A DNA stretch of 40,000 nt from Ligilactobacillus equi DSM 15833 = JCM 10991 (GTDB taxonomy: Bacteria > Bacillota > Bacilli > Lactobacillales > Lactobacillaceae). Each line of letters starts with the position of its first letter. Within the stretch, counting starts at the first letter, position 1. Positions 6,187-21,858 of this stretch are shown here, in pieces. The stretch covers positions 4,009 through 44,008 of the forward strand of contig NZ_BAMI01000012.1 in the NCBI RefSeq assembly GCF_000615765.1, written 5' to 3'. The notes under the pieces were generated by a model. It did no database searches, was not told the DNA's origin, and saw nothing but the letters and a program-made list of their open reading frames with translations. The position numbers and the translations under genes are program-made.

Positions 6187-6341
6187 TGATGTTCTGATGT
6201 ATTGGTGAGATGATGATTATCGGGATGCTTCCGGTGTTACCTACTATGTGCAGGCGTGACTTGTCTGTGTAGGTGTTGCTCTAGTGAAAACAACAGTGAT
6301 ACTTTTTCCTTTCTGTTTCCCTATGTATGTAGGGGGGTCTT
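6187..6341 (+). repeat. cluster of decayed type I-E CRISPR-repeat-like units upstream of cas8e
   Basis: Best unit is 6314-6341, TGTTTCCCTATGTATGTAGGGGGGTCTT, against consensus GTGTTCCCTACGTATGTAGGGGTAATCC. A second unit is 6234-6261 (GTGTTACCTACTATGTGCAGGCGTGACT). A third is ~6254-6281 (..CTTGTCTGTGTAGGTGTTGCTC), which resembles the decayed terminal repeat of array 1. A weak unit lies at ~6187-6214. The 32 nt between 6282 and 6313 are spacer-sized. Confidence 0.5.
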
Positions 6342-6371
6342 TGCAAAGTATTTAATACTTTTGGAGATGAT

Positions 6372-6503
6372 GTGAAAGAAAAGATTAAAGACTTGCCAAA
6401 ATTAACAATCGTTAAAATCAGATCATACAATTACTGCTCAAAAGTTGCAAAAAATGGAACTTTAGCACAACTAACCAAATTGCAAAATGCTGCTAAATAT
6501 TAG
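6372..6503 (+). CDS. 43-aa mini-ORF (VKEKIKDLPKLTIVKIRSYNYCSKVAKNGTLAQLTKLQNAAKY)
   Basis: GTG start 6 nt after a GGAG. It is followed by a terminator hairpin and lies between the decayed repeats and cas8e. Too short for the ORF track. Confidence 0.3.
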   Translation: MKEKIKDLPKLTIVKIRSYNYCSKVAKNGTLAQLTKLQNAAKY

Positions 6504-6524
6504 GCAGATTTTGCACTACAATAA

Positions 6525-6579
6525 ATACCCCCTTAACCTAATAATGGTGTACACATTACAGGTAAGGGGGTATTTTTTC
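6525..6579 (+). terminator. rho-independent terminator
   Basis: 11-bp stem ATACCCCCTTA / TAAGGGGGTAT (6525-6535 / 6563-6573) followed by TTTTTT. The loop is long, about 27 nt. Confidence 0.5.
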
Positions 6580-6865
6580 GCAATTTTACGGCTTAGTTTT
6601 ATTATACACGTTTCTCATATTTTAGTCAAAGACAGATGGCAGAGTATTCCTCGTTTATTTTTCACCTAAAACAATAAGTATATCGCTTATATCACTTGCT
6701 TTTTTATCAATAAATTCGACAGAAACAATCGTATAAAAAACGACAACTTTCCTTGGATTTTTCTGCTAATTTTTCTTGAAAAATATACAAAAAGGAGTTA
6801 TCATAATTACATAATTAATAAACGACGTAAACATCGTAAAAAATACGAAAATGAGGTGATGCATA

Positions 6866-8653
6866 GTGGACAAAACCTTTCAAAAGAAGTCTTTTAATCT
6901 AGTTACTGATAACTGGATAAATGTGTTAAATGGGGATTTCGAAATCGAAACAATTAGCTTAAAAGATTTTTTTACACACGCTAAGGATTATATTTCACTA
7001 GCAGGAGAATCAGAAGCACAAAATCTTTCAGTTTTACGTTTTCTGTTAGCTATCATGCACAAGACTTATTCTATCGAAAATGAAGTAAGCCCTACTGATA
7101 ACAAAGAACAAATTGAAAAAGCGGCTCTTAATAAATGGAAACAAATTTACAAGAACTATCGTGCTGATGAAGTGGTAGCTTATTTAGAAGAAAACCAAGC
7201 TAGTTTTGACTTGTTTGGAGATAAGCCTTTCTACCAAGTAACTAGAACTCAATACAATGAGTTAGTTCCAGATAACAAGCAAATCAATGCTAAGAAATTA
7301 AAAGATCTTAATAACAGAGCAAATGATAGTGTGGCTGTAACTGGGACAATTACGGTTAAGCAATTTAAACGTACTATTTCTGAAAGTAGTAATACTCCTA
7401 ATTTATTTGCTTTAGAAAGTGAACGCTACAAGAATAAAATTACATTTGATGAATTAGCTCGCTGGTTAATTAGTTTCCAAGGTTATACAGCCACGTCTGA
7501 CAAAACAGCCATTAAGAACAAAGAAAAATTTAGTAAGTCTCCGGGTTGGCTGTTTAAAATTAATCCTGTTTTTGCAGTAGGGGATGATATGTTTGACACA
7601 CTCATGCTTAATTTAAAACTTGATAGCCCTAATAAGCAAAAACCCGTTTGGGAATATGATAACCCACTAGCTTATATTGATAAGCTTAGAACGCTAGATA
7701 AGCCTAATAATATCACTGAATTATATACAAATTTATCTCGTGCGGTATGTATTGAATGGGATGATTTTGGACGTCCTGCAATCTTCTCAGCAGGGTTACC
7801 ACAATTTGATTCAGCTGATTATTACAACGTAGAGCCTATGACAAGCTGGCGTGTTCTTAAAAAAGATATTGTCTTACCAAATACCAAAAAGCCTGATGAA
7901 TTTACCACAGCCTTATGGCGAAGTATTGGAGAATTCATTCCATTACCACACGTTGAAATTCAAGACGGCACCAAAGACAATTCTAAAAAGAGAAAGTCTC
8001 CTAAAACTAAAAAACCATTACGAGAAACACCTAACGTTGGACTCATGGAGTGGTTAACTTTACTTCGAAATAACAGCATTACAGAGTCAATCTTGACAAA
8101 TAAAACATTGACTTTGAAGAATGTATTGCTACTTAAAAGCCAACAAGCAGACGGCTTGCCAGTAGATGATTTCAATGATTCTTTTGATTTCAATGCAGAC
8201 CTACTTGTCCCAACTGATTCTGACTCTAGTGATTTAGCACATGGTGATGTGAAGTTCTTAATTGCTGATGCTTTAGAACGAATCCGTTTAGTTCACAATG
8301 CTTTAGCGCTAGCAGCTAAAGATATTGCTGAACTACGCTATGGGGAAAAAGGGCAAAACAACTCGAAGTTTGTTAATGAGCAAGTTAAGAGTCTTTATAA
8401 CAAGTTAGATGATAGCTTTAATGAATGGTTTAGTTCCATTGACCCAACAGGTGATTTAGTAGAAAAATCTGACGAGTTAAATGAAGTCCTACGTAAAATT
8501 ACATACAACTTTAAGTCTAAGTTGTATGTAAGTGCTTCTAGCAAAGAAATCAATGGTACTACGGTTGAAACTAAAGCTGGAAAGACCGTCAACAAAAACA
8601 TTTATACTGTTCTTAATTCATTTGATTTTAAAATTAGAAATATTTTGAGGTGA
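6866..8653 (+). CDS. cas8e: Cas8e (Cse1/CasA), type I-E Cascade large subunit
   Basis: 595-aa ORF with a GTG start after a GAGGTGA RBS. The N-terminal FNLVTDNWINV matches the conserved Cse1 N-terminus (E. coli NLLIDNWIPV). First gene of a cas11-cas7-cas5-cas6e series. Confidence 0.88.
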   Translation: MDKTFQKKSFNLVTDNWINVLNGDFEIETISLKDFFTHAKDYISLAGESEAQNLSVLRFLLAIMHKTYSIENEVSPTDNKEQIEKAALNKWKQIYKNYRADEVVAYLEENQASFDLFGDKPFYQVTRTQYNELVPDNKQINAKKLKDLNNRANDSVAVTGTITVKQFKRTISESSNTPNLFALESERYKNKITFDELARWLISFQGYTATSDKTAIKNKEKFSKSPGWLFKINPVFAVGDDMFDTLMLNLKLDSPNKQKPVWEYDNPLAYIDKLRTLDKPNNITELYTNLSRAVCIEWDDFGRPAIFSAGLPQFDSADYYNVEPMTSWRVLKKDIVLPNTKKPDEFTTALWRSIGEFIPLPHVEIQDGTKDNSKKRKSPKTKKPLRETPNVGLMEWLTLLRNNSITESILTNKTLTLKNVLLLKSQQADGLPVDDFNDSFDFNADLLVPTDSDSSDLAHGDVKFLIADALERIRLVHNALALAAKDIAELRYGEKGQNNSKFVNEQVKSLYNKLDDSFNEWFSSIDPTGDLVEKSDELNEVLRKITYNFKSKLYVSASSKEINGTTVETKAGKTVNKNIYTVLNSFDFKIRNILR

Positions 8654-8658
8654 TTATT

Positions 8659-8883
8659 ATGCAGCCACGTAGTGTAAGAATTTACAGTATCGAACCAAAT
8701 GGAAATCGGAAACTACTTGCTACTGTTTTTCAAGCTATATATTATTCTGAAGGCTTTTCTTCTTCGTGGGAGCCAACTGACGCACTTTTAGATGAGATTA
8801 GTTCTCTGAGGAGTGATTTTGCTTATCGGGATTGCGTGCTTGAGGTAACGTCTGGTGATGGAGCCTTTGATGCTAGATACTAG
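8659..8883 (+). CDS. unknown 74-aa protein inserted between cas8e and cas11
   Basis: The ATG at 8659 sits 7 nt after GAGGTGA, which overlaps the cas8e stop, so translation looks coupled. The track ORF 8650-8883 uses an upstream GTG. No family recognised. Not part of canonical I-E operons. Confidence 0.5.
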   Translation: MQPRSVRIYSIEPNGNRKLLATVFQAIYYSEGFSSSWEPTDALLDEISSLRSDFAYRDCVLEVTSGDGAFDARY

Positions 8884-8913
8884 GACTTATGTTATTTCAA
8901 GTAACTTATTAAT

Positions 8914-8963
8914 GCGAGAAATACAGAAAATACGAGATGCGAGAGATATAAGAAACACGAGAG
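8914..8963 (+). repeat. imperfect 25-bp tandem duplication upstream of cas11
   Basis: Units are GCGAGAAATACAGAAAATACGAGAT (8914-8938) and GCGAGAGATATAAGAAACACGAGAG (8939-8963), matching at 19 of 25 positions. It contains four RCGAGA motifs and abuts the cas11 RBS. Confidence 0.6.
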
Positions 8964-8976
8964 GTGGGACGCTTCA

Positions 8977-9585
8977 ATGCCAACAAAAGAAGTCAAGTAC
9001 GCTACTTTAAGAGCGGTAGGTAGAATTTATCGTAATGGTGCAATGAATAAAGCTGTTTTAGCTGATTTTAGGAATGCAACATCTATCGATAAATTACGCT
9101 CACAGGACTCCTTAGAGGCTATTTTAAGTAGTTTAGAGGAAGAGGACCTAAGTGTAACTGGCAATCCTTCAAAGGGCGAAAAAGCCGCTTTTGGAGCCTT
9201 ACACTTATACGCTATTGCACAGCAAAGACAAATTGCTTCTGCTTTAACCTTAACCAAAAAAGAACATGATACATCATTATTTGCTGTCTTAGGTAAATTA
9301 CGGTATGTATCTGATGAATTACGCATTAGTTTAGACCGAGTTTTAAAGCCCGTTCTAACAAGACCTAATTATGAGATGGCTGTACGTGAATTATCACATG
9401 CGCTTAAAATTGCCAAGCAACATGTTCAAAATATGAATATTGATTTTGCTCAACTGGCAGGCGATTTGTACTATATGCAATACAGCTTACAAAGTGCTAG
9501 GAAAGTACAACTACTATGGGCCCAAAAATACTATCGTCCATACAATGTAGTTACTAGTGAAGAAAACAAGGAAAACGCAAAATAA
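8977..9585 (+). CDS. cas11: Cas11 (Cse2/CasB), type I-E small subunit
   Basis: 202-aa helical ORF between cas8e and cas7. Cse2-like segment KAAFGALHLYAIAQQ. Call rests on position and size. Confidence 0.78.
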   Translation: MPTKEVKYATLRAVGRIYRNGAMNKAVLADFRNATSIDKLRSQDSLEAILSSLEEEDLSVTGNPSKGEKAAFGALHLYAIAQQRQIASALTLTKKEHDTSLFAVLGKLRYVSDELRISLDRVLKPVLTRPNYEMAVRELSHALKIAKQHVQNMNIDFAQLAGDLYYMQYSLQSARKVQLLWAQKYYRPYNVVTSEENKENAK

Positions 9586-9600
9586 GAAAGGAATTTCCAA

Positions 9601-10641
9601 ATGACACTATATTTAGATTTATCTGTAATCCAAACTGTTCCATCTGCAAACATCAATCGGGATGAAGTAGGCGCTCCTAAGAAAGCATATTACGGTGGCG
9701 TTTTACGTTCACGTGTATCTTCTCAAGCATGGAAACACGCTATTAGAGAAGATTTTGCTAAAGCTAATGTTGATACCGCATATCGTACTAAGTTAGTTCC
9801 TAAAAAGTTAGCCAAGCTATTACAAGCTAAAAATGGTGATTTATCTGATGAAGAAGCTATGGAATTATCTGTTGCTACTTTAACAAAGGCTAAGATTTCA
9901 GTTACTAAAGACAATGAATTAAGTGCCTTAATGTTTATTAGCAAGGGCCAACTTGAAAAGCTTGCTGATTACGTTTTGGAAAACAAGGAATTAAATGAAG
10001 ATCAGTTAAAAGTGATTTTACAATCTAACAATTCTGCTGATTTAGCCTTATTTGGTCGTATGGTAGCAAGTGATCCTACGCTTTCTGTTGATGCATCTGT
10101 GCAAGTGGCCCACACGATTTCAACTCATGAAATTGTACCTGAATTTGACTACTACACCGCTTTAGATGACTTAAAGACAAGTGCAGGGGCGGCAATGGTA
10201 GGGACTACTGAATATAACTCTGCAACGCTTTTCCGCTATGCAAATATCAATTTAGATGAATTATTGCACAACTTAGGCGACAAGAACATTACTCTTGATT
10301 CAGCAACTCAATTTATCAAGTCATTTATTAGCTCAATGCCTACTGGATACCAAAATGCTTTTGCTAACAAGACTATCCCTGAATATGTAATGCTCACACT
10401 ACGTAATGATACTCCGGTTAACTTGGTATCTGCTTTTGAAGAACCTGTTCAATCAACTAGTGGTTTTTCTCGTAAATCAGTAGAGCAGCTTGAAAAAGAA
10501 TACAAGAATACACTTAAATTCTTAGATGAACCAGTAGCAAACTTTGTATTAAGCAAGTATGACTCATCGTTAGAAGAACAAGTAAATAATCTTGCTGACC
10601 TGTTAGATAAAGTAAAGGATTCCTTTGTAAAGTTGGTGTAA
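9601..10641 (+). CDS. cas7: Cas7e (Cse4/CasC), Cascade backbone subunit
   Basis: 346-aa ORF. N-terminal LSVIQTVPSANINRDEVGAPKKAYYGGVLRSRVSSQAWKHAIR matches the CasC hallmark (N-x-N-R-D ... G-x-P-K ... R-x-R-x-S-S-Q). Confidence 0.92.
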   Translation: MTLYLDLSVIQTVPSANINRDEVGAPKKAYYGGVLRSRVSSQAWKHAIREDFAKANVDTAYRTKLVPKKLAKLLQAKNGDLSDEEAMELSVATLTKAKISVTKDNELSALMFISKGQLEKLADYVLENKELNEDQLKVILQSNNSADLALFGRMVASDPTLSVDASVQVAHTISTHEIVPEFDYYTALDDLKTSAGAAMVGTTEYNSATLFRYANINLDELLHNLGDKNITLDSATQFIKSFISSMPTGYQNAFANKTIPEYVMLTLRNDTPVNLVSAFEEPVQSTSGFSRKSVEQLEKEYKNTLKFLDEPVANFVLSKYDSSLEEQVNNLADLLDKVKDSFVKLV

Positions 10642-10644
10642 GTT

Positions 10645-11400
10645 ATGCGGACATTAACAATTAGACTAACTGGTGTTTTTCAATCTTACGGTGGAGAAAC
10701 AAATTTTTCTAGGAGAGGAACTAAGCCTTATCCTACAAAAAGTTCAATCATTGGAATGATTGCCGCTTCTCTTGGCTACAGACGTGATGACGATGCACAA
10801 ATCAACGAATTAAATAAATTGAATTATGCTGTTCGAATCGAGCAACTTGGCGATGTAACAACTGATTTCCATATTGTTCATTATGAAGGATACATCACTG
10901 GTAATAGGGGCCAGGTTAGCGGTTCTAAAATCACTTATCGAGACTATTTGCAAGATACAGTATTTTTAGTTGCTATTAGCAGTGAAGATGATGAGTTAAT
11001 TAATACAATTCGTCATTCACTAGCTCATCCCAAATTTCAACTATTTCTCGGTCGACGAGCAAGTGCTCCGGCAGGCGTTTTAAAGACAAGTATTTTTCCA
11101 AATATGACACCAATTCAGGTCTTAGAAAATGAGTCTTGGCAAGCAGCAGATTGGTATAAAAAACGTTTGAGAAAGTCTGAAGTAGCCTTAAAAATAGTAG
11201 CTGATGTTCAACTACTAAAAGGGCAGAAATACAAAATTTCTAGAGATACAGTTATCTCATTTTCTGAAAAAAAGCGAAAACATGGTTATCGAGGAATTGC
11301 AACTAAAACTGTTAAAGTTGCTAATGATAAGTATGTTGCTACTTCAACAAAGCATGATCCGTTATCGTTTTTTGAAACTGAAGTAATCGCGACAAAGTGA
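10645..11400 (+). CDS. cas5: Cas5e (CasD)
   Basis: 251-aa ORF. N-terminal LTIRLTGVFQSYGGETNFSRRGTKPYPTKSSIIGMIAASLGYRRDD matches the CasD pattern (L-x-G-P-x-Q-S-W-G ... R-x-T ... P-T-K-S ... G-L-x-A-A-A-L-G). Confidence 0.9.
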   Translation: MRTLTIRLTGVFQSYGGETNFSRRGTKPYPTKSSIIGMIAASLGYRRDDDAQINELNKLNYAVRIEQLGDVTTDFHIVHYEGYITGNRGQVSGSKITYRDYLQDTVFLVAISSEDDELINTIRHSLAHPKFQLFLGRRASAPAGVLKTSIFPNMTPIQVLENESWQAADWYKKRLRKSEVALKIVADVQLLKGQKYKISRDTVISFSEKKRKHGYRGIATKTVKVANDKYVATSTKHDPLSFFETEVIATK

Positions 11401-11436
11401 TGACGAAAAACATTGATTTGACAATGTTTCTTTAGT
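11401..11436 (+). promoter_or_regulatory. short leader of CRISPR array 1
   Basis: Only 36 nt separate the cas5 stop from the first repeat. Shares TTGACAA and AATGTTTYTTTAG with the leader of array 2. Confidence 0.5.
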
Positions 11437-11908
11437 GCATTCCCTACGTATGTAGGGGTGAACCTCAAGGTCTAAGAAAAGACCGACGCTATAAAACGCA
11501 TTCCCTACGTATGTAGGGGTGATCCTGACAGTCATACTAAAAGTTATAGAAGGGAGGGGCATTCCCTACGTATGTAGGGGTAATCCTGCTGAGTACATTA
11601 TTGAACAAGTTGATGAAGGAAATTTCCTACGTATGTAGGGGTAATCCTATCACTCCTGCAGCGGTTCATAATTTCAAGGAGTAGTCCCCACGTATGTAGG
11701 GGTGATCCTGCTGTGTTAATACTGGGGGAAACTGCAGATTCAGTTGTTCCCTATGTATGTAGGTGTGGCTCTATCGGCTTTTTGCGTGTTTCTTAAATGA
11801 TGTTCCCTACTGTTATGGGTGTTTTCCTGTATGTGTCTTCCTGTGTTCAAGGGCGATATTAGCTTGTATATTTGAAAGTTGTTTCCTACTTTTATTGTAG
11901 GAGTTTTA
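11437..11908 (+). CRISPR. CRISPR array 1 (type I-E repeat), located between cas5 and cas6e
   Basis: Six 28-nt repeats start at 11437, 11498, 11559, 11620, 11681 and 11744 (GCATTCCCTACGTATGTAGGGGTGAWCC). Period is 61 nt and spacers are 33 nt, the last 35. Decayed repeat-like units follow at ~11799-11828 and 11881-11908. Palindromic core is CCCTAC-GTAT-GTAGGG. Orientation is the same as the E. coli I-E repeat. Confidence 0.9.
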
Positions 11909-11923
11909 TAGAAAGGAAAAATT

Positions 11924-12541
11924 ATGTATTATTTATCACGAGTAGAAATTAACAATAAGAATGCAAAAGAAATTAAAGAATTCAACCACTTAGGTGCTTA
12001 CCATAATTGGGTAGAGCAAATGTTTCCTGAAAATATTGAAAATGGTGTTCGCCCACGTCATTTATGGCGTATTGATATCTTAAATGGTGTAAAATATCTA
12101 TTAGTACTAAGTGAAGAAAAACCTGATTTGGATATTTTAGAAAGTCATGGTATAAAAGGAACTGGAATTATTAAGGAATATGATAAGTTGCTAGACACCA
12201 TTAAAATAGATTCAGTATTAAAGTTTCGCTTAACAGCCAATCCTGTACGCCAATTTAATGGAAAAGCATATCCTCACGTTACCGTAAAACAACAAAGAAA
12301 GTGGTTGTTAGATAGAGCTGAAGCTAACGGCTTTACGTTAGATGATAATTACTTTACAATCGTTAGTCGTGATTATGTTCCATTAAAACGGAAAAATAGC
12401 AGAGGTTGCAATTTAAGTCGGGTATCTTTTGAAGGTATTTTAAAGGTAACTGATGTTGATAGCTTTAAAGATATATTAGTTAATGGCTTAGGGAGAGAAA
12501 AGGCGTTTGGTATGGGACTCATGACTGTTGTCCCATTTTAG
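11924..12541 (+). CDS. cas6: Cas6e (CasE) crRNA endoribonuclease
   Basis: 205-aa ORF with a GAAAGGA RBS. N-terminal MYYLSRVEIN and C-terminal GLGREKAFGMGLMTVVPF match CasE hallmarks (M-Y-L-S-R ... G-I-G-R-A-K-A-F-G-C-G-L-L). Confidence 0.9.
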   Translation: MYYLSRVEINNKNAKEIKEFNHLGAYHNWVEQMFPENIENGVRPRHLWRIDILNGVKYLLVLSEEKPDLDILESHGIKGTGIIKEYDKLLDTIKIDSVLKFRLTANPVRQFNGKAYPHVTVKQQRKWLLDRAEANGFTLDDNYFTIVSRDYVPLKRKNSRGCNLSRVSFEGILKVTDVDSFKDILVNGLGREKAFGMGLMTVVPF

Positions 12542-12604
12542 CAAAGTAACTAAATTTTATCTAGATGTGTTAGCAAGATGTTGACAAATCAATGTTTTTT
12601 TAGA
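12542..12604 (+). promoter_or_regulatory. leader of CRISPR array 2
   Basis: 63 nt lie between the cas6e stop and the first repeat. Contains TTGACAA (12581) and AATGTTTTTTTAG, a paralogous copy of the array-1 leader end. Confidence 0.5.
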
Positions 12605-13364
12605 GTGTTCCCTACGTATGTAGGGGTAATCCCGTCCAAGCTTATCTTGAAATGCCTTAGCTGCTGTGTTCCCTACGTATGTAGGGGTAATCCCTCAAGC
12701 TGGTCTTCCTCGAGCGCCCTTTTTTCGTGTTCCCTACGTATGTAGGGGTAATCCTAAAAGTGGCCACGGAGGATTAGGCGGTAATAAGTGTTCCCTACGT
12801 ATGTAGGGGTGAACCTTCTCGTTTTGCTGGTGGGGCGGACATGGGTTCGTGTTCCCTACGTATGTAGGGGTGAACCTTAAAGGTTGGGAAGAAGAACTAA
12901 GGACGGGAAGTGTTCCCTACGTATGTGGGGGTGAACCTGCAAATGTCCCTGCTCGTCCAAAAGACGCCCAGTGTTCCCTACGTATGTAGGGGTAATCCTA
13001 TATATACATTCAAACCTTGATATTAGCAATTGTGTTCCCTACGTATGTAGGGGTAATCCTGGTGCAGCTGACAAGACTAACCAAGTTAAGACGTGTTCCC
13101 TATGTATGTAGGGGTGAGCCTGATTAGTAATGGTATCTTGGTTGCTCTTGATAGGTGTTCCCTACGTATATGGGGGGTGAGCCTATATGTTCAAACCTTG
13201 ATATAGCAAGTAGTGTTCCCCACGTACGTGGAGGTGATTCCGTAGGTGAGGGTAAACCTGTAACACCGGGGTGTACGTTTCTTATTCCCTATGCTTGTAG
13301 GTGTGAACCCATAGATACTATGGATACTATATTTTCTTGTTCCCTATTTATGTAGGTGTGAGTC
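12605..13364 (+). CRISPR. CRISPR array 2 (type I-E), 13 repeats / 12 spacers
   Basis: Repeats start at 12605, 12666, 12727, 12788, 12849, 12910, 12971, 13032, 13093, 13155, 13213, 13282 and 13337. Consensus is GTGTTCCCTACGTATGTAGGGGTAATCC. The first nine sit on an exact 61-nt period. The last four are decayed, and the last four spacers are irregular (34, 29, 41 and 27 nt). Confidence 0.95.
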
Positions 13365-14508: not shown

Positions 14509-14710
14509 AGTAATGAAAGATGGTGATATGGTGAAGCACTATGGTCGTCATAAGGATAATCATTATTACAAGGGAATTAAAAATATTTTCTACCGAAAGC
14601 AGCATAGTTCCTGCGAAACTAAAAAGATACAGTATGCGACTAAACTGGATGCACTTATCGATATATCAGCGATACAGTACCAGAAAAAGAAAAACCGATG
14701 TCAACAGTAA
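14486..14710 (+). pseudogene. 5' part of a small gene apparently interrupted by the IscB element
   Basis: 74-aa ORF (likely start MKDGDMVKHY at 14513) that stops exactly where the structured omega-RNA region begins. A start-less C-terminal fragment in the same orientation lies at 16455-16571. Confidence 0.3.
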
Positions 14711-15040
14711 CCCCTCTATTCACTGAAGTAAGGGGCTTGAAATGAAAGTTTTAAGTCTGCTCACTTTGATGAGGATTCTGGAGCAATTCAGAATTTGTTG
14801 TCTAGACTAAGCAATCAGCTTCGGCTGATTGGAAAACTACGTTATTTTAGTCATCATACCTTATGAATGATACCCTAGTTTTAAGCTCTATGGAGGATAG
14901 TAAACAAGGATAAGGTTAATGTCCTAGTCGGCCCCTCATAACAAGCTAAAATAACATTGTCGAAGGGTAACCACATGTAACTGTTAGTTCTCTGATAGTT
15001 GCGTGATAAGGTACATGCTACCTTATAAAAAATGAAAGGA
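14711..15040 (+). ncRNA. putative IscB omega-RNA scaffold (guide expected at or just upstream of the 5' edge)
   Basis: 340-nt ORF-free gap directly upstream of iscB on the same strand. Stable hairpins: CCCCT..AGGGG (14711-14735), ATTCTG..CAGAAT (14775-14794), CAATCAGC-TTCG-GCTGATTG with a UUCG tetraloop (14812-14831), and ATAAGGTA-CATGC-TACCTTAT (15006-15026) abutting the RBS. IscB omega-RNAs are known to be encoded in exactly this position. Confidence 0.6.
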
Positions 15041-15050
15041 GAAAATCAAA

Positions 15051-16391
15051 ATGCAAAATCGAGTTTTTGTCATTAATAAACATGGTGAAGCTTTAATGCC
15101 TTGCAAACCGAGAACTGCTAGAAAATTATTACAAAGTGGCAAGGCTAAGCCTATTAAGAAAGAACCATTCACCATTCAACTATTGTACGGTGCAAGTGGT
15201 TATAAGCAACCTATTAACTTAGGTGTTGATAGCGGGCAACGTCACATTGGGCTTGCGGTAACAAGTCAAGATAAAGTTTTATTTCAAAGCGAAGTCGAAT
15301 TGCGCCAAGACGTTAAGAAACTTCTTGAAAGAAGAAAAACTTATCGTCAAGGTAGACGGAACCGTAAGACACGTTACCGTCCAATGCGTTTTTTAAATCG
15401 CATCAAAAGTAGAAAAAATAACTGGTTGCCACCGTCGGTACAAAGTAAAGTTAATCACAACATTAATTGGATTAAACGCATGTTAACGGTGTTACCAAAC
15501 CCTGAATTACACATCGAAGTTGGTAAATTCGATATGCAAAAAATGAAAGACCCTGCCATTAAAGGTGAAGGTTATCAAAAAGGGGACTTGTACGGCTATC
15601 AAACGGTTAAGCAATACGTCTTAGCTCGTGACCAATATAAATGCCAAGTCTGCAAGAAAAAAGGCGGTAAGTATAAAGGAAAAATCGTTAAACTCAAAAT
15701 TCACCACATTATTTACCGCTCACAGGGTGGTACCAATGCCCCTGCTAACTTAATTACCGTTTGTGCTGATTGCCACACTTATCAAAATCATCAACCAGGT
15801 GGCATCTTATATGCCTGGTATCAGAAGAAAAAGAAAGTAACTAAGCCTTTGAAAGGCGCAACCTTTATGAATATTCTCCGTAGGAGATTATGGAATGCCT
15901 TTCCTGATGCCAAGTTCCAGTATGGGGCGCAAACCACTTTACAACGGGCAAATTTAGGCTTGGCAAAATCGCACTACAATGATGCCGTTACAATTAGTGG
16001 TATTGAACATATTAGTGAAAAGCCAACAAGTATCGTGATGTTTAAACAATTTCGCAAGAAAAAGCGTTTCTTACACGAAGCAACCGCACGCAAAGGATGT
16101 AAAGACAAGGAAGGGCACAGAAACAAGAATGTCACCAGTAAACGGAATGCCAAAAACACCAAAGAAGCAAACGGCTTTTGGCTTAATGATTATGTCAGAA
16201 TCAAGAACAGTAAACTTAAAGGCTACATTAGTGGCTTTACAGGGAGTTCCTGTTATATCAAGGATTGTCTTGGCAATTATCTGACTCTTAATACGTACAA
16301 GCAAACAAACTTGTCTAATGTTGAATTTATTAATCATAGAAATAATTGGTGTAATACCAGTATTTCCGAACAAAGATACGTTATGGAATAA
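15051..16391 (+). CDS. iscB: IscB, RNA-guided RuvC/HNH nuclease (Cas9 ancestor family)
   Basis: 446 aa. PLMP domain (KHGEALMPCKPRTARKLL). RuvC-I (LGVDSGQRHIGLAV). Arg-rich bridge helix (RRKTYRQGRRNRKTRYRPMRF). RuvC-II (ELHIEVGKFD). HNH (CQVCKKKG ... IHHIIYRSQGGTNAPANLITVCADCH). RuvC-III (KSHYNDAVTI). C-terminal TID-like domain. AAAGGAG RBS. Confidence 0.87.
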   Translation: MQNRVFVINKHGEALMPCKPRTARKLLQSGKAKPIKKEPFTIQLLYGASGYKQPINLGVDSGQRHIGLAVTSQDKVLFQSEVELRQDVKKLLERRKTYRQGRRNRKTRYRPMRFLNRIKSRKNNWLPPSVQSKVNHNINWIKRMLTVLPNPELHIEVGKFDMQKMKDPAIKGEGYQKGDLYGYQTVKQYVLARDQYKCQVCKKKGGKYKGKIVKLKIHHIIYRSQGGTNAPANLITVCADCHTYQNHQPGGILYAWYQKKKKVTKPLKGATFMNILRRRLWNAFPDAKFQYGAQTTLQRANLGLAKSHYNDAVTISGIEHISEKPTSIVMFKQFRKKKRFLHEATARKGCKDKEGHRNKNVTSKRNAKNTKEANGFWLNDYVRIKNSKLKGYISGFTGSSCYIKDCLGNYLTLNTYKQTNLSNVEFINHRNNWCNTSISEQRYVME

Positions 16392-16454
16392 AAGAAGAAA
16401 TAGAAAGGAGTCAGCTTTTCAAGCTGAGAGCTATCCATCCCACAACTAAAGTAA

Positions 16455-16571
16455 CGGGATTTCCGCTCAATTATCATTAAATCATTTTCGGATGTACCAC
16501 TTAGAGCATATCGGTGCAAATACTGTGGGCAGTGGCACATGACTCATTATCGTGATTATTATGATGAGTAA
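16455..16571 (+). pseudogene. start-less 3' fragment of a small zinc-ribbon-like gene
   Basis: Open frame from the stop at 16452-16454 to the TAA at 16569-16571: RDFRSIIIKSFSDVPLRAYRCKYCGQWHMTHYRDYYDE*. It has no start codon and a C-x2-C-x3-H tail. Confidence 0.3.
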
Positions 16572-16645: not shown

Positions 16646-19012
16646 CTAATTTTGAAAAGAGTTAGGATACTTAATTTCGTCCAGTAGCGGACTAGCTTTG
16701 CCAACGTAATAATCAATGTAAAGCTTCTTCTTAGCTCTAGTCATCCCCACGTAGAGAAGTCTGCGTTCGTCTTCAACGAATTTTGAATGAGCCATAATTT
16801 CTGCATAGAACATTCTCATAGCAGTTCTAAGTTGTGTATTTTCTTCTACCATTTTGCTAAGCATTCCTTCTGTACTTAAAGATTGAATAATCTTTAATCT
16901 ATCACTAGGTTGAAGGTCGTCCAACTTGTATACATCTTCAAAGTACATTTCACATGCATTAGGACTAATTCCTAGCAATGCACCTAGTACATAAGCCATT
17001 GAATCAAAACTACCATAGTCCATTAAATCTTCCAAATCTGAGTAATTAAACAAGGTATAAAACTCTTCAAAAGTGGTATCGGCAGGAAATGCTTTGGATA
17101 TTGCCATTAAATCATCAGTTAAATCACTATCAGTAAGCCCGTACAGGTAAACGTTGTCCCATTCAAGTCCCTTTGATCCATGTAGGGTATCAAGCTTAAT
17201 AGAGGGCTGTTTGGTATCTGTGAGGTTATTACCGTTATTAACTATGGCTGAAAGAAGTCTAAGATTTCTATCTTGAGATTCTTCTAATTCTTCAAATTCG
17301 CTAAATTTCTTCGTCAACTTATAGAGATAGTTTTTAATTGTTTCAACTCTTTCTGAAGAGTAGACATGGTATATCTTAGTCATGCGTTGAAAGTATAAAT
17401 TGGTTATAAGGTCAACTTCTCGCAAATACTTTGATAAGTCCTTTTCTTTCTTGTGTTTCATTTTTTCAAATTTTCTGTGACATCTAATTACTTCTAAATC
17501 ACTGTCATCAGCAACATCATCATCATTTGTGCCTATTACCCAGTTAACATAATTAGTAATGGTGTTGATTTTCCGATATCGAACAACGCTTTTTAGTTTT
17601 TTGGCATATTTTCCAAACCCAATTCTGTTTGCGTAATTTGCTAGTAAGATAAAATCGTCATAATAAAAGGCCTTTATTAATCCCATAAAAACGTCATATA
17701 CTTTGTCATTTTGCAAAATATTACTAGAACTACCTACATCAAGATAAACGTCCTTATACGCTAAAACATCGGCTATAACGGGCTTATCTTTATTGTATCT
17801 AACTAGAATAGCACTTGATTCATTGGGGCTATTCGCTAAGTTTTTGAGCATTTTCTCAAAGAACTCATCCCCATGATTTCCTTCTTTACTTTCAATCTTA
17901 TAGACTTTTCCACCTTTATTAAATGCTTTAAGGGACTTTTCTAGTCTTAGTGTATTTTTAGTGATTACTGGAATTACACTATCTAAAATATTCCCACCAG
18001 TACGATAGTTGGTAGATAAGTTAAAGGTGACAGAATAATTGACAAACGTTGAGAACTTTTGAATAAAGTCAGGGGATGATCCTCTAAAAGAGTAAATGGA
18101 TTGGTCATCATCCCCAATAACCATTAGCTGCTCAAAAGATTTTTCAGAGAAAATACGATTCATCAATGCCCATTGTAAAGCGTTAATATCTTGGAACTCA
18201 TCAATAACGATAACGTTCCACCTACGCATCATTACACCTTTTATCTTAGATTGTAATCTCTCGTCATTTAACGCAACATAGAGAAGCTTTTGCATGTCTT
18301 CAAAGTCAATCTGTTGGTTACGTTCTTTTAGCGAGCTATATTCTTTGAGAGCATAAATATAATTTTCAACCCATCCTTTGTTAAGATATTGATCAGAAAC
18401 TAAACTGATAAGTTCTTCAACGGATAATTCTTTCTTCTCAACCATGGCTAAATAGTCCTGAATTGCTGTTGAATTATAATTAGGGTCTAACCCGTTAGAA
18501 CTGAGCATTCGATTGACTAACTGGCTTTTAACTTCAAATATTTGTTTCAACGATTCAGAATTGGTTAATTCTTTGCTTTTATTGGGTAACTTAAAATAAG
18601 TAATGTAGTGTTTGTATTCACTAGGTAATACGCTAACAGTTTTATATTGGGGCATGTAGAACCTTAGCAACTTATAGAAGAAAGCGTGAAAAGTAAAGAA
18701 ACTAGGACTGCCCCAATCACTAATATTAATACCTAATATTTGAACACGCTTAATATATTCGTTATATCTTTCTCTCATGTCTAATTGAGCTTTCTTCGAG
18801 AACGTAATTCCTAACACATCATGTGGTCTGCTATTTCCAATAAGTGCATTATAGATGATTGTTAGCATAAAGATAGTCGTTTTACCTGAACCAGCGCATG
18901 CATTAACAAGAGTGGGGTGTGCGATTCCTTCTTTAAGAATATTTTTTTGTTCATTCGATAGTTTAAATTTACCGATTAATTCGATAATCTTAAGAGCTTC
19001 ATTTTGATCCAT
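16646..19012 (-). CDS. UvrD/PcrA/Rep-like SF1 DNA helicase
   Basis: 788 aa. Walker A CAGSGKTT. Motif II VIVIDEFQD. Motif III VIGDDDQSIYSFRGS. Motif IV NYRTGGNI. Motif V TLHGSKGLEWDNVYL. Motif VI LLYVGMTRAKKKLYI. GAGGAA RBS. Long insertion between motifs IV and V. Confidence 0.87.
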   Translation of the reverse strand: MDQNEALKIIELIGKFKLSNEQKNILKEGIAHPTLVNACAGSGKTTIFMLTIIYNALIGNSRPHDVLGITFSKKAQLDMRERYNEYIKRVQILGINISDWGSPSFFTFHAFFYKLLRFYMPQYKTVSVLPSEYKHYITYFKLPNKSKELTNSESLKQIFEVKSQLVNRMLSSNGLDPNYNSTAIQDYLAMVEKKELSVEELISLVSDQYLNKGWVENYIYALKEYSSLKERNQQIDFEDMQKLLYVALNDERLQSKIKGVMMRRWNVIVIDEFQDINALQWALMNRIFSEKSFEQLMVIGDDDQSIYSFRGSSPDFIQKFSTFVNYSVTFNLSTNYRTGGNILDSVIPVITKNTLRLEKSLKAFNKGGKVYKIESKEGNHGDEFFEKMLKNLANSPNESSAILVRYNKDKPVIADVLAYKDVYLDVGSSSNILQNDKVYDVFMGLIKAFYYDDFILLANYANRIGFGKYAKKLKSVVRYRKINTITNYVNWVIGTNDDDVADDSDLEVIRCHRKFEKMKHKKEKDLSKYLREVDLITNLYFQRMTKIYHVYSSERVETIKNYLYKLTKKFSEFEELEESQDRNLRLLSAIVNNGNNLTDTKQPSIKLDTLHGSKGLEWDNVYLYGLTDSDLTDDLMAISKAFPADTTFEEFYTLFNYSDLEDLMDYGSFDSMAYVLGALLGISPNACEMYFEDVYKLDDLQPSDRLKIIQSLSTEGMLSKMVEENTQLRTAMRMFYAEIMAHSKFVEDERRLLYVGMTRAKKKLYIDYYVGKASPLLDEIKYPNSFQN

Positions 19013-19279
19013 ATAACTCGTTCCTCGTGTTTATTTAGAGTGTTTTTCTAATGCATTAATGTCTATCTAACGTATGCAGTATGACGTTACACATTCTCGT
19101 CAACGTGAGTAGGTAGGACAGTTGAATATATAGGGGATGGTTTGTAGAGAGGCTTCTCCATTTTAACTGCTATATAAAATGTGTTCCTTTCTATCGTACT
19201 ATCATATTTTTAGAGGCGAGGGGGGAGTGTATCGCATAATGTACTGTATACCGCAAATTGTTACTTTTTAAACAATACC

Positions 19280-19308
19280 ATTTTATAACGTTTCGTTATA
19301 AAAATCAA
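19280..19308 (-). promoter_or_regulatory. promoter with palindromic operator in the spacer (copy 1, upstream of helicase)
   Basis: Minus strand reads TTGATT (19308-19303), 17 nt, TAAAAT (19285-19280). The spacer is filled by the palindrome TATAACGTTTCGTTATA (19284-19300). Confidence 0.6.
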
Positions 19309-19571
19309 TACATTTGCTAGAGTGCTTTAGGAATATAGCTTTATAAAAAAATTTGCGTAAATAAAAACCGCTCCAAACTCCCAATTTCAAGCGGTTAAGT
19401 TTACCTATAAACGTGCCGTCGACCGACAGCTAAGAAGGATGGGTATTAGCGTACCTGTCCTTTTTCATTTGCCATTATAAGCTATATAGTACTTGCAAGT
19501 CAACACTAATAACTTATAGCAGCGGATGAACTAATAACGTCATAATATGAGGGTAAAAAACAATATAAGGG

Positions 19572-20461: not shown

Positions 20462-20737
20462 ATGTTGAAGAATAATGAACACATGGAAAATTCAGAGTTA
20501 ATAAAAAGAAATATGTATACAATAGGTCAAACTGTAAAAAAATTAAGAAGGCAGAAAAAATGGTCACAAGAATATTTAAGTTTTATGTCCGGTCTAGATC
20601 GAACATATATTGGTGGACTAGAAAGAGGAGAAAGAAACGCGACTATAGGAACATTAACTACTATTTCTAAAGCTTTGAATATAACTTTATTTCAATTAGT
20701 AGAGGAAGCGTCTAAATATGAATCAGGAAATCATTAA
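20462..20737 (+). CDS. R-M controller (C) protein, XRE-family HTH
   Basis: 91 aa. WSQEYLSFMSGLDRTYIGGLERGERNATIGTLTTISKAL matches the C-protein signature (SQE-LA ... RTY-x-x-x-ERG-x-RN). Overlaps the downstream endonuclease gene by 20 nt. Confidence 0.8.
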   Translation: MLKNNEHMENSELIKRNMYTIGQTVKKLRRQKKWSQEYLSFMSGLDRTYIGGLERGERNATIGTLTTISKALNITLFQLVEEASKYESGNH

Positions 20738-21764
20738 TAATGCTAAGCGTATCCGTAATAATATCGAAAAAAGTCAAAAGACGATTTATGAAAAGACAAC
20801 ACCAAAGGATAAAGATTTGTGGTTAGGAGATCAAGAGCTAGAGTATTTGTTAAGGTCTTCTTTACTCGGTAAATCTTATGAAGGTCAGGCAAATAGAACT
20901 CGATCAAAGTCTATAAATCAAGATATTTGCAAGGCTATGGGCTATCCTGTTCCTAAGTCGTTCAAGAAGACTCATCCTCGGTTTGTATGTCAGAACTTTG
21001 ATAAGTATGCTCAGCAATCTAATAATCTTCAAATTTGGAATGAAGAAATCACACCAACTAGACGTTATTGTTTAATAATGTTGAACGATAAAAATGTAGT
21101 AGTTAACGTATTAATCTTATCTGGAAATACCTTACAGGAATTTGATTCAACTGGGACATTAACAACAAAATATCAAGCAAGTTTAATTAAAGACTATAAT
21201 AAGTCGACACTTCTAAGTACTCATGATACTGATAATATTCAAAATGCATTTGGTGAATTTAATACTCTTGTAACACAAGATCCTGCTTCTTTCCCTACTG
21301 CTAAAAGTATTATGAGTATTAAAAGTATATTTAACCGCTTAAAGCTATTGGAAGGTAAGAACTTTAATATCACAGGTAAAGAGAGAACGGATGGTAACAT
21401 TTTACAAGGAATAGTCTATAAACAATTGGGATATACACAATATAGAGAAAATGGACAATTACCAGATTTGATGAACCAATTATTAGAAATTAAAAGGCAA
21501 ACTTCAAGAACGATTGATTTAGGATTGTTTAAACCAGATGATCAAGAAGAACTTAATATTCCAGCTATTAATGGCTATGTTCCTAAAGTTGAAGATTTAC
21601 GTTACGCAATATTTTATTGCAGTATTCATGATACTCAAATGACAATTGATAAAATATTCTTAGTAACTGGGAAGGATTTTTTTAAATATTTTCATCTTTT
21701 CAGCGGAAATAAGCAGAATAAAAAAATTCAGTTGTCTTTAAAAAAAGAATATTGGAATCTATAG
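20718..21764 (+). CDS. type II restriction endonuclease (PD-(D/E)XK candidate)
   Basis: 348-aa ORF translationally overlapped with the C gene and convergent with a methyltransferase. Candidate catalytic motif LPDLMNQLLEIKRQ (PD ... E-x-K). Confidence 0.6.
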   Translation: MNQEIINNAKRIRNNIEKSQKTIYEKTTPKDKDLWLGDQELEYLLRSSLLGKSYEGQANRTRSKSINQDICKAMGYPVPKSFKKTHPRFVCQNFDKYAQQSNNLQIWNEEITPTRRYCLIMLNDKNVVVNVLILSGNTLQEFDSTGTLTTKYQASLIKDYNKSTLLSTHDTDNIQNAFGEFNTLVTQDPASFPTAKSIMSIKSIFNRLKLLEGKNFNITGKERTDGNILQGIVYKQLGYTQYRENGQLPDLMNQLLEIKRQTSRTIDLGLFKPDDQEELNIPAINGYVPKVEDLRYAIFYCSIHDTQMTIDKIFLVTGKDFFKYFHLFSGNKQNKKIQLSLKKEYWNL

Positions 21765-21818
21765 TTCTTCTTTTATTATAGCAGTATGAAGACTCCTTAA
21801 CTTGGTTTAGGTTTACAC

Positions 21819-21858
21819 AAAAAATACCGAGAACGTTTTTTAGTTCTCGGTATTTTTC
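21819..21858. terminator. bidirectional terminator between the convergent R and M genes
   Basis: 11-bp stem ATACCGAGAAC / GTTCTCGGTAT (21824-21834 / 21843-21853), flanked by an A-run and a T-run. Confidence 0.75.

Follow-up and report, generated by a model that had tools for sequence, protein, structure and literature searches.

Within the 40,000-nucleotide stretch of Ligilactobacillus equi type-strain DNA analyzed here (the window), we found a type I-E CRISPR-Cas locus whose components are arranged in the order cas8e-orf74-cas11-cas7-cas5e-array 1-cas6e-array 2 (Table 1). All five Cascade ORFs are intact, as claimed in a preliminary description of this DNA, and each gave Pfam, NCBIfam or PADLOC matches to the expected family, with Pfam/NCBIfam-type matches exceeding the curated cut-offs. 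The locus thus encodes both I-E signature subunits, Cas8e (Cse1) and Cas11e (Cse2), along with Cas7e, Cas5e and Cas6e, for which the TIGR01869, TIGR01868 and TIGR01907 scores all surpass their cut-offs; the score for TIGR02547 (51.9 vs a cut-off of 70) is sub-threshold because of the divergence of Cas8e described below. The position of array 1 between cas5e and cas6e and the presence of an ORFan between cas8e and cas11 had not been mentioned in the preliminary description.

Table 1. Features of the L. equi type I-E locus and its surroundings (window positions)
Feature	Position	Strand	Remarks
Degenerate solitary repeat	6314..6341	+	2 mismatches in 20-nt repeat core
Candidate sigma-70-type operon promoter	6776..6804	+	TTGAAA-17-TATCAT; consensus scan only
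cas8e (cse1)	6866..8653	+	595 aa, large Cascade subunit; PF09481 193.7 bits; PADLOC Cas8e 187 bits
orf74	8659..8883	+	74 aa, ORFan between cas8e and cas11
cas11e (cse2)	8977..9585	+	202 aa, small subunit; PF09485 58.6 bits; TIGR02548; PADLOC Cas11e 180 bits
cas7e	9601..10641	+	346 aa, backbone subunit; PF09344 360 bits; TIGR01869 251 bits
cas5e	10645..11400	+	251 aa; TIGR01868 117.9 bits
Array 1 leader	11372..11436	+	diverged Lactobacillaceae I-E leader; weight matrix rank 1
CRISPR array 1	11437..11771	+	within operon; 6 repeats, 5 spacers
cas6e	11924..12541	+	205 aa, crRNA endoribonuclease; PF08798 177.9 bits; TIGR01907 74.3 bits
Array 2 leader	12542..12604	+	63 nt; weight matrix rank 2
CRISPR array 2	12605..13364	+	13 repeats, 12 spacers
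HEARO RNA of IscB	14703-14974		downstream of array 2
IscB	15051-16391		downstream of array 2

The 19 repeats, for which the chance expectation is 0, all lie on the + strand, in agreement with the earlier count; however, not all of them are well formed, as had been stated, since this applies to about 14, while the last four to five repeats of array 2 are degenerate. Nine or more of the array 2 repeats are well formed. The repeats are of the I-E kind in length (28–29 nt), in the spacing of the units (~61 nt) and in their hairpin (7-bp stem, 4-nt loop). Array 1 repeats vary among themselves, and two additional decayed repeats extend this array to ~11905, where they abut the cas6e ribosome-binding site. 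Each array retains a diverged version of the leader conserved in Lactobacillaceae I-E systems. When a weight matrix trained on 87 canonical leaders was applied to the window, the two array leaders ranked first and second of 79,870 positions. The leader-repeat junction is kept in both arrays, and the array 1 leader, aligned by eye, ends in TTTAGT at this junction. The 3' end of cas5e, which exceeds its relatives by 14–18 aa, enters leader-like sequence. A protospacer search, which the preliminary description had proposed, was carried out for every spacer and returned no protospacer for any of them.

The signature gene of type I systems is cas3, which encodes an HD nuclease and SF2 helicase. Neither Pfam searches of the large ORFs nor tblastn with the Cas3, Cas1 and Cas2 proteins of relatives revealed any of these three genes. 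Profile HMMs built from 69–82 relatives (Cas3: 69 sequences) were run against 1229 six-frame segments covering the entire 46-kb contig, and the best E-value was 0.048, which is noise (Cas1, at least 0.6; Cas2, at least 1.6); as a positive control, a canonical locus scored 447–1480 bits with the same profiles (Cas3, 1480). The absence noted in the preliminary description is therefore upheld, and the cognate cas3-cas1-cas2 block just outside the window that it had named as a possible refutation was not found anywhere in the 46-kb contig. Likewise, no remnant of cas3, cas1 or cas2 was detected in any frame of ~33 kb of the matching contig of L. equi strain DPC 6820. Jointly, the contigs span ~33 kb upstream and ~26 kb downstream without these genes. 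In the window and in the assemblies of all three strain sources, including the JCM-derived one, cas6e is followed directly by leader and array, with the array 2 leader occupying the canonical cas1-cas2 position immediately 3' of the cas6e stop codon. Compared with a complete type I-E system, the locus thus lacks both cas3 and cas1-cas2.

The designation effector-only, previously given to this system, is accurate for the locus and the whole contig in two strains, but not for the entire type-strain genome. A survey (Crawley 2018, PMC6070500, supplementary file 2) lists cas1, cas2 and cas3, and 11 Cas proteins in total, for DSM 15833, so the type strain is not effector-only genome-wide, the source for a second cas locus being this single published table. 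Conversely, the same survey lists only five non-V-U Cas proteins for DPC 6820, with cas1, cas2 and cas3 unlisted, and this strain appears to be effector-only at the genome level. The placement of the locus on a plasmid or ICE did not find support: megablast against PLSDB gave no match, and neither a rep nor a relaxase gene could be recognised. The IscB element reported downstream of the locus is indeed present, with its HEARO RNA. Nearby pseudogenes include a split RpiR and truncated PTS genes, and RecD-like and UvrD-like helicase genes lie outside the operon, 6–7 kb upstream (before the start of the window) and ~3 kb downstream of array 2.

Strain DPC 6820 shares the stripped architecture, with ~98% identity and the same junctions. 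This identity agrees with a published genome-wide ANI of more than 98% (PMC8952416), which fits vertical inheritance of an already stripped architecture. Within the Cascade genes, the strains differ by 30 synonymous and 15 non-synonymous substitutions (pN/pS 0.14; binomial test against neutrality, p = 8e-11), with dN/dS values of 0.14 for cas8e and 0.09 for cas6e, demonstrating purifying selection.

In both arrays, the two strains have the spacers of the trailer end in common, and each has its own at the leader end. Among the newest repeats, those of type-strain array 2 (R1–R3; R0–R3 in the assembly of DSM 15833) match one another exactly, as do those of DPC 6820 array 1 (R1 = R2), whereas the first two repeats of DPC 6820 array 2 differ, which argues against very recent acquisition there. 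At the leader-proximal end of array 2, the DSM 15833 assembly contains one spacer that is missing from the window and the JCM-derived contig, although a deletion or an assembly difference on the side of the other assembly would explain this just as well. Furthermore, type-strain array 2 and DPC 6820 array 1 have one 33-nt spacer in common, which is bordered at both flanks by the repeat variant of the array that contains it (GCATT in array 1, GTGTT in array 2). The array differences could also have arisen if blocks were lost differentially from a larger array of greater age, in which case about two deletions per array would replace ~14 acquisitions.

The Cascade subunits have not diverged evenly. 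Cas8e is at most 35.6% identical to its counterparts at 84 related loci and 31–39% identical to those of 74 canonical systems. At matched Cas7 divergence, its identities (mean 36.0%, maximum 39.3%) fall below every canonical pair (mean 47.3%, minimum 39.9%), while those of Cas6e are normal (54.3% vs 55.6% for canonical pairs); Cas8e is therefore excess-diverged relative to the Cas7-based expectation, and Cas6e is not. Cas8e retains 73 of 103 near-invariant columns (30 of 103 are lost), compared with 104 of 119 in Cas7 and 47 of 50 in Cas6e; in Cas11, 5 of 15 near-invariant residues are lost. These losses in Cas8e and Cas11 could represent a partial loss of function instead of a functional shift. 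The Cas6e motifs HLGAYHNW, RHLWR and GREKAxGMG are intact. The closest relative of Cas7 is 58% identical, and the lineage of this locus has been found in a single species. For Cas5e, Cas5 models were the sole matches and an HNH domain was not found; for Cas11, Cse2 models span residues 3–193 and no fused nuclease domain was found.

The ORFan orf74, which would encode 77 aa from an alternative GTG start at 8650 that overlaps the cas8e stop, is identical between the type strain and DPC 6820. Among 1.84 billion representatives it matched only itself; it had no match in Pfam, NCBIfam, PADLOC or PHROG and is missing at all 84 related loci examined. Its AF2 model (pLDDT 68.7) gave no fold match.

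By sequence, the L. equi proteins are closest to those of canonical Lactobacillaceae I-E systems (cas3-cas8e-cas11-cas7-cas5e-cas6e-cas1-cas2/DnaQ). Like the locus, these systems have all five Cascade families, a 28-nt hairpin repeat with a period of 61 nt and a homologous leader that ends in TTTAGT. The locus differs from them in the lack of cas3, cas1 and cas2, in the array that intervenes between cas5e and cas6e, and in the cas8e/cas11 ORFan. This configuration had been thought uncharacterised on a Lactobacillaceae mobile element, but two precedents exist. Minimal I-E variants of Streptomyces without cas1, cas2 and cas3 are mentioned in a passage of PMC12231136 that summarises Shmakov 2018 and Makarova 2020, and the L. 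equi locus, also I-E-derived, has lost the same three genes. According to that passage, the Streptomyces variants have STAND NTPases as neighbours, together with small membrane proteins, and a role in signalling has been proposed for them; the scanned ORFs of the window and its upstream flank yielded no STAND/NB-ARC-type match. In an identity ranking, which is not a tree, Cas7 is 53–58% identical to Lactobacillaceae proteins vs 42–45% to those of Streptomyces plasmids, a result that does not indicate common descent with the Streptomyces variant and points to a probably independent origin. The other precedent is plasmid pLS1 of Fructilactobacillus sanfranciscensis (NC_015979), a mobile element that carries an I-E locus. 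The gene of an RNA-guided nuclease of the IS200/605 family, TnpB, lies just after cas6e there, and cas1 and cas2 are unlisted in an incomplete PLSDB gene table (annotation only). Its Cas7 is 57% identical to that of L. equi, but, unlike the L. equi locus, pLS1 retains cas3.

Type IV-A3 systems resemble the L. equi locus in having a Cascade-like effector without an adaptation module or effector nuclease. According to PMC12669027, these plasmid systems take spacers in trans (citing Benz 2024) and are thought to bind or silence their targets, using host I-E Cas1-Cas2. However, type IV-A3 uses Csf proteins and DinG, whereas L. equi uses Cas8e, Cas11, Cas7e, Cas5e and Cas6e with no operon-linked helicase partner; as its effectors are of I-E families, the locus is not a type IV system, and the resemblance is functional only. 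Two I-E variants acquired a substitute nuclease as a fusion to a Cascade subunit, namely I-E2 (Cas5-HNH, typically without cas3) and I-E3 (a Cas11-PD-(D/E)xK nuclease fusion) (PMC12669027, PMC10910872), while L. equi Cas5e and Cas11 carry their own domains only. With no HNH domain in Cas5e, the locus is not of the I-E2 (HNH-Cascade) kind, the sole HNH domain in the vicinity being that of the separate IscB; the 202-aa Cas11 is without PD-(D/E)xK, which distinguishes it from I-E3. Nor does it correspond to the CRISPR-associated transposons (I-F3, I-B, I-E5), since transposition genes of their kind, such as tnsA/B/C or tniQ, were not found among the scanned ORFs of the window and the upstream 6 kb.

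We consider it somewhat better than an even bet that the locus is a functional minimal type I-E module of Cascade and two arrays, maintained by selection, from which cas3 and cas1-cas2 were lost before the two L. equi lineages split. Purifying selection, the intact Cas6e motifs and the repeat hairpin are indirect indications that Cascade may be functional. For expression, crRNA processing, adaptation and interference, we infer the following scheme. The genes and arrays from cas8e to array 2 would be transcribed as an operon, Cas6e would cut the repeat hairpins to release 61-nt crRNAs, and crRNA-loaded Cascade would form PAM-dependent R-loops at matching DNA. Spacers would be inserted at the two retained leaders by Cas1-Cas2 acting in trans from a co-resident canonical I-E system, a candidate donor being the system listed for the type strain in the survey; turnover at the leader ends and the retention of both leaders lend positive support to adaptation in trans. 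Plasmid-borne systems are mostly without adaptation modules (PMC9071438). Lacking a nuclease, Cascade would interfere mainly by binding the target element so tightly that its transcription or replication is blocked, comparable to E. coli Cascade without Cas3 and to type IV-A, and target degradation would occur only with a compatible Cas3 in the cell. The silencing of genes by a Cas3-free Cascade has a precedent in the literature (PMC4288158). The two alternatives offered in the preliminary description, a Cascade that only binds and one that borrows Cas3 and Cas1-2 in trans, were in our judgment the right ones. A more far-reaching proposal, which we advance tentatively and at less than even confidence, is that of a nuclease-free, binding-only I-E Cascade, independent of both type IV and the Streptomyces variant, which may silence or exclude competing mobile elements in a member of the Lactobacillaceae living in the gut; its arrays would be refreshed by any co-resident canonical I-E adaptation machinery, its Cas8e would no longer dock Cas3, and the in-operon array and possibly orf74 would be adaptive.

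The mode of interference would be different if the locus were part of a split but otherwise conventional I-E system, in which Cascade recruits a Cas3 encoded elsewhere, targets are degraded, and primed adaptation takes place in trans; this is a realistic possibility, albeit one to which we give less than even probability. Any Cas1-Cas2 available in trans probably came with the Cas3 of the same operon, and the survey does list all three genes for the type-strain genome. However, DPC 6820 is listed without them, yet its genes are equally constrained. Also in keeping with a split system is the occurrence of the same spacer in different arrays of the two strains' lineages, as is typical when adaptation is primed. 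Primed adaptation requires Cas3, and in characterised I-E systems Cas3 docks on Cas8e. It is precisely this subunit, and no other, that shows clear excess divergence, and, as the nearest known Cas8e is only ~35% identical, recognition by a canonical Cas3 is uncertain. The module may instead be functional but have gained no spacers since the loss of cas1-cas2, the strain differences being due to block deletions or inter-array recombination. Although two block deletions per array are fewer events than the acquisitions they would replace, blockwise repeat variants (GTAATCC, GTGAACC, GTAATCC) suggest recombination, and the differing first repeats of DPC 6820 array 2 agree with this account, we regard it as rather unlikely: separate integrations explain the own-array repeat variants around the common spacer better than transfer by recombination does, the leader-proximal unit differs between two type-strain assemblies, and the leader-repeat junction is retained in both arrays.

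A decaying remnant, that is, a canonical I-E system deleted for cas3 and cas1-cas2 and otherwise drifting toward pseudogenes, is disfavoured and, in our estimation, very improbable. Such decay might account for the many degenerate repeats, the mutually different repeats of array 1, the conserved residues lost from Cas8e and Cas11 and the neighbouring pseudogenes, and plasmids carry incomplete loci more often than chromosomes do (PMC9071438). It is difficult to reconcile, however, with five ORFs that have stayed intact over 4.8 kb in two strains under purifying selection that accrued after the loss of cas3, cas1 and cas2, with the intact Cas6e motifs and the well-formed repeats of array 2, or with the polar differences between the strains at the array ends, as expected for active arrays. 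That contig breaks separated cas3 and cas1-cas2 from the locus has a negligible probability, even though the available L. equi genomes are all drafts and the survey places other cas genes on other type-strain contigs. Two independent assemblies have the same gene order and unbroken sequence across the expected positions of cas3, cas1 and cas2, which refutes an artefact at the locus itself, and the flanking sequence described above is likewise free of these genes.

For natural type I systems without Cas3, the usual explanation is that another nuclease or a partner (HNH, transposase, STAND NTPase) was gained in its place; otherwise they are dismissed as decay. The L. equi locus has no visible replacement for Cas3, yet exhibits clear purifying selection and polar array differences. 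Were it to act by binding only, it would constitute a CRISPRi-type I-E system found in nature, in a bacterial family that is associated with food and the gut and whose I-E systems already serve as genome-editing tools. Adaptation in trans, if true, would be a second independent case for an effector without its own adaptation genes, beside type IV-A3. As cas1, cas2 and cas3 are reported elsewhere in the genome of one strain and reported absent from the other, this pair makes the question directly testable.

Upstream of cas8e, the decayed repeat cluster of the preliminary description amounts to one clear degenerate repeat (Table 1) and one or two much weaker ones at ~6187 and ~6244. No complementarity was found between the region of the solitary repeat and the cas8e promoter. 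The ~195-bp segment that holds this repeat (about 6210–6405) is an indel polymorphism between the strains; DPC 6820 instead carries ~430 bp of unrelated sequence here, including a 127-aa ORF. Further downstream, at ~6527–6580, a hairpin with a trailing T run was spotted by eye upstream of the candidate promoter.

The preliminary description had claimed five Cascade genes and 19 repeats, and all were recovered, the genes by the sources named in the table and the repeats by a count of the consensus GTGTTCCCTACGTATGTAGGGGTGAACC, which occurs 19 times on the + strand (none expected by chance) and can form a hairpin (7-bp stem, 4-nt loop). Array 1 has an unusual position between cas5e and cas6e, and only 63 nt separate cas6e from array 2. 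In the DSM 15833 assembly GCA_001435735.1, contig AZFH01000155.1 (46,352 bp) is equivalent to the window except for a few indels and one spacer, and extends beyond it by approximately 6.2 kb on the left and 0.1 kb on the right. Matches to the window also come from the Logan contigs of runs ERR387509 and DRR003290, and its Cas7 is identical to a protein recorded under Ligilactobacillus equi.

Features of the type I-E locus and its downstream neighbourhood (window positions)
Feature	Position	Strand	Remarks
cas8e	6866-8653		Pfam, NCBIfam, PADLOC
orf74	8659-8883		74-aa ORF between cas8e and cas11
cas11	8977-9585		Pfam, NCBIfam, PADLOC
cas7	9601-10641		Pfam, NCBIfam, PADLOC
cas5e	10645-11400		Pfam, NCBIfam, PADLOC
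array 1	11437-11771	+	6 repeats, 5 spacers, then two further decayed units
cas6e	11924-12541		Pfam, NCBIfam, PADLOC
array 2	12605-13364	+	13 repeats, 12 spacers
IscB element	14700-16477		HEARO/omega RNA 14703-14974; IscB ORF 15051-16391
UvrD/GajB-like helicase	16646-19012	-	GajA partner absent
type II R-M system	20462-23559		with controller protein
R-M controller HTH	20462-20737
R-M REase	20718-21764
Eco57I/TaqI-type methylase	21877-23559	-
Abi_2 gene	29173-30162	-

Cas3, Cas1 and Cas2 were not found by Pfam in any large ORF, and tblastn with the corresponding proteins of close relatives gave no match. Profile HMMs for the three proteins, built from 69–82 Lactobacillaceae sequences and run against 1229 six-frame segments from the whole type-strain contig, returned only noise (best E = 0.048); as a positive control, the same profiles scored 447–1480 bits on a control locus. 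Since none of these three approaches gave anything above noise, we consider remnants of cas3, cas1 and cas2 to be absent from the contig. The absence previously claimed for the 40 kb thus holds over the whole 46-kb contig, and a cas3-cas1-cas2 block just outside the window, named as counter-evidence in the preliminary description, was not found on the rest of it.

A published survey lists four CRISPR arrays and 11 Cas proteins for DSM 15833 (Crawley et al. 2018, PMC6070500, supplementary file 2), the types being cse2, cas1, cas2, cas3, cas5, cas6, cas7 and cas8e (PMC6070500); that the type strain has Cas3 and adaptation genes elsewhere in its genome is known only from this one table (PMC6070500). 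A repeat-core scan of genome contigs for a second L. equi locus gave 0 matches, the source region perhaps being masked; no L. equi protein was among the best 80 of 310 relatives in a Cas1 profile scan, or among the top 120 in protein searches with a metagenome-contig Cas1 and the L. agilis Cas3. For a second strain, DPC 6820, the survey gives three arrays and, outside type V-U, five proteins under the labels cas10, cas5, cas6 and cas7; cas1, cas2 and cas3 are not among the entries (PMC6070500). These five are most simply the five Cascade proteins of the present locus; the odd 'cas10' label may stem from Cas8e, which is annotated in that assembly as a truncated protein of 532 aa without the conserved N-terminus. 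The DPC 6820 genome is apparently without cas3, cas1 and cas2.

Among 5.8 billion proteins in one collection, the nearest Cas7 has 58% identity. Every one of the closest relatives has a canonical locus (cas3-cas8e-cas11-cas7-cas5-cas6e-cas1-cas2(DnaQ)-array), and a second array lies upstream of cas3 in several of the related loci. Compared with 74–84 canonical loci, the L. equi Cascade proteins form an outlying lineage. Near-invariant columns, defined as at least 95% conserved among relatives, are kept at 47 of 50 positions in Cas6e, 45/51 in Cas5, 104/119 in Cas7, 73/103 in Cas8e and 10/15 in Cas11. When canonical pairs were chosen at an L. equi-like Cas7 identity (52–57%), their Cas8e identity averaged 47.3% (minimum 39.9%), as against a mean of 36.0% (maximum 39.3%) between L. 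equi Cas8e and canonical systems; Cas6e identity was normal (54.3% for L. equi, 55.6% for canonical pairs at matched Cas7). Because Cas8e falls below the canonical range at matched Cas7 while Cas6e does not deviate, the large subunit is disproportionately diverged. In characterised I-E systems, it is this subunit that recognises the PAM and provides the docking site for Cas3.

In 87 canonical arrays, the first repeat is preceded by a conserved leader of approximately 65 nt (consensus ...AAACTaAT.aAAAA.GG...AATTTaAgAATGccG...TTTAGT, directly followed by the repeat). The leaders of both L. equi arrays are diverged copies of it, ranking first and second of 79,870 window positions with a canonical-leader weight matrix, at scores on the low edge of the canonical range. 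The final codons of cas5e extend into leader-like sequence, and Cas5e therefore has 14–18 extra residues.

An exact-sequence cluster look-up identified Cas7, Cas8e and Cas6e in DPC 6820, each differing slightly from the type-strain copy. Its contig AWWH01000158.1 has the same gene order, including orf74, the internal array and a 63-nt leader after cas6e, and cas3, cas1 and cas2 were not found in approximately 33 kb of it. Nucleotide identity of the operon between the strains is about 98%, consistent with the genome-wide ANI of above 98% published for L. equi strains (PMC8952416); as two strains share the architecture at an identity in line with ANI, the stripped form most likely existed before the two lineages separated. 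Comparison of the five Cascade genes between strains gives 30 synonymous and 15 non-synonymous changes (pN/pS 0.14; binomial test against neutrality, p = 8e-11), with dN/dS values of 0.14 for cas8e, 0.28 for cas7 and 0.09 for cas6e, and zero non-synonymous changes in cas5. Purifying constraint has operated after cas3, cas1 and cas2 were already gone from the locus, which argues strongly against the view that the Cascade locus is a drifting remnant.

The two strains have the trailer-end spacers of both arrays in common, and the leader-end spacers are strain-specific. Array 1 has two common spacers and two own leader-end spacers per strain; array 2 has three common spacers, with 9–10 of its own in the type strain and 5 in DPC 6820. 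The DSM 15833 assembly contains one additional leader-proximal spacer, missing from the window and the DRR003290 contig. These patterns are those expected of polarised acquisition. A 33-nt spacer, TTAAAGGTTGGGAAGAAGAACTAAGGACGGGAA, is shared between the type strain's array 2 and DPC 6820's array 1, and since it is flanked in each strain by the host array's own repeat variant, separate integrations fit better than recombinational transfer. Spacers were likely acquired after the loss of cas1-cas2; we do not grade this higher because differential block deletion is a real alternative explanation for the strain-to-strain differences and requires fewer events than acquisition. No credible protospacers were found for 23 distinct spacers in phage and plasmid collections, or for three in IMG/VR, the sole matches being at chance level and all to one low-complexity spacer; nor do any spacers target the contig itself.

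Taken from sequence, the best-supported reading is that the locus would be a working minimal I-E module. Both arrays would be processed by Cas6e, whose motifs are intact, and Cascade would assemble and then bind matching DNA, while a co-resident I-E Cas1-Cas2 might supply spacers by acting on the retained leaders. A parallel for such a supply has been reported for plasmid type IV-A3 systems, according to work cited in PMC12669027, and supply in trans fits the general lack of adaptation modules in plasmid systems (PMC9071438). Interference could proceed by binding alone or with Cas3 acting in trans. Binding alone is favoured by two points: Cas8e is diverged in excess, and constraint has persisted in DPC 6820, a lineage reported to be without cas3. 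A trans-acting Cas3 may still take part, given that one spacer was apparently acquired by both strains and that the survey lists cas3 for the type strain.

Judged by all effector and repeat criteria, the locus is a derivative of type I-E, but it lacks the cas3 and cas1-cas2 of a complete system. It is distinct from the Streptomyces minimal I-E variant, as it has no STAND NTPase and is closest in sequence to systems of Lactobacillaceae. I-E2 and I-E3 do not apply either, since neither Cas5 nor Cas11 carries a fused nuclease, and the locus belongs to neither CAST nor type IV. A partial precedent is F. sanfranciscensis plasmid pLS1 (NC_015979.1, 3902-13030), a plasmid-borne I-E system running from cas3 to cas6e, followed by a TnpB gene. 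Unlike the L. equi locus, pLS1 has kept cas3; its available gene table contains no cas1-cas2, and the TnpB gene after cas6e parallels the RNA-guided IS nuclease 3' of the L. equi arrays. JGI metagenome contigs (Ga0307379/Ga0307377) have an array repeat, CTTTTCCCTACGTATGTAGGGGTGAACC, that agrees with that of L. equi at 26 of 28 positions; the arrays adjoin cas6e, a Cas1 that is unusually short (265 aa) and a Cas2 (92 aa). This I-E lineage, which has very few relatives, was rejected as the cognate complete system, being unrelated and having the short Cas1. Viral Cascade-only relatives were likewise discarded, the single IMG/VR match carrying a canonical locus.

The alternative GTG start of orf74 overlaps the cas8e stop codon, and the ORF does not differ between the strains. 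A homologue was found neither among 1.84 billion representative proteins nor, as a counterpart, in 84 related loci; its structure model (beta-beta-alpha-beta-beta, moderate confidence) has no fold match. A known anti-CRISPR or Cas subunit was rejected, as neither sequence nor fold matched; orf74 may encode a new accessory subunit, or the stretch may be a non-coding insertion. A CRISPR-derived regulatory RNA was rejected for the solitary upstream repeat, which is not complementary to the cas promoter region or any other relevant site and whose segment is missing in DPC 6820. This segment (6210-6405, with the decayed repeat) is replaced there by an unrelated stretch of approximately 430 bp (L099, a DPC 6820 sequence stretch, 6370-6801) encoding a 127-aa ORF, and the adjacent RlaP-like nucleotidyltransferase has 251 aa in the type strain and 294 aa in DPC 6820.

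The surroundings resemble an island of defence genes and mobile elements. Upstream genes (NinI-like phosphatase, RecD/Dda-like helicase, MazG-like protein, nucleotidyltransferase) are phage- or plasmid-like, none being diagnostic. Downstream, the IscB, R-M and Abi neighbours of the preliminary description were recovered as the IscB element, a type II R-M system with controller protein and an Abi_2 gene, together with a UvrD/GajB-like helicase. The RecD2-like and UvrD-like helicases have no support as Cas3 substitutes, both lying outside the operon and having no HD domain, and the latter resembling GajB. The IscB element is cleanly missing from DPC 6820, in which AAAAACCGAT and TTAAATCATTTTCGG are contiguous (L099 14805/14806); the pair of filled and empty sites marks both ends of the element and implies recent mobility. 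No TnpA gene adjoins it. Further upstream, DPC 6820 has another IscB and a TnpB (sequence stretch L100, 2256-3563 and 8600-9784).

No rep, relaxase or integrase genes were recognised in the neighbourhood, and no plasmid in PLSDB matched at the nucleotide level. At 24890-24993, the 13-nt unit GTTACTTAATTTT is repeated approximately eight times in tandem and has an iteron-like look, with no replication or partition gene recognised nearby. The palindrome TTTTATAACGTTTCGTTATAAA occurs in three intergenic regions (19272-19310, 23842-23880 and 38470-38508) and may be a shared operator of one regulator. The sugar-utilisation genes at 25123-28754 look degraded: the RpiR regulator is in two pieces, one with the HTH (27992-28276) and one with the SIS domain (28299-28754), and the PTS EIIC/EIIA and EIIB ORFs appear truncated or overlapping.
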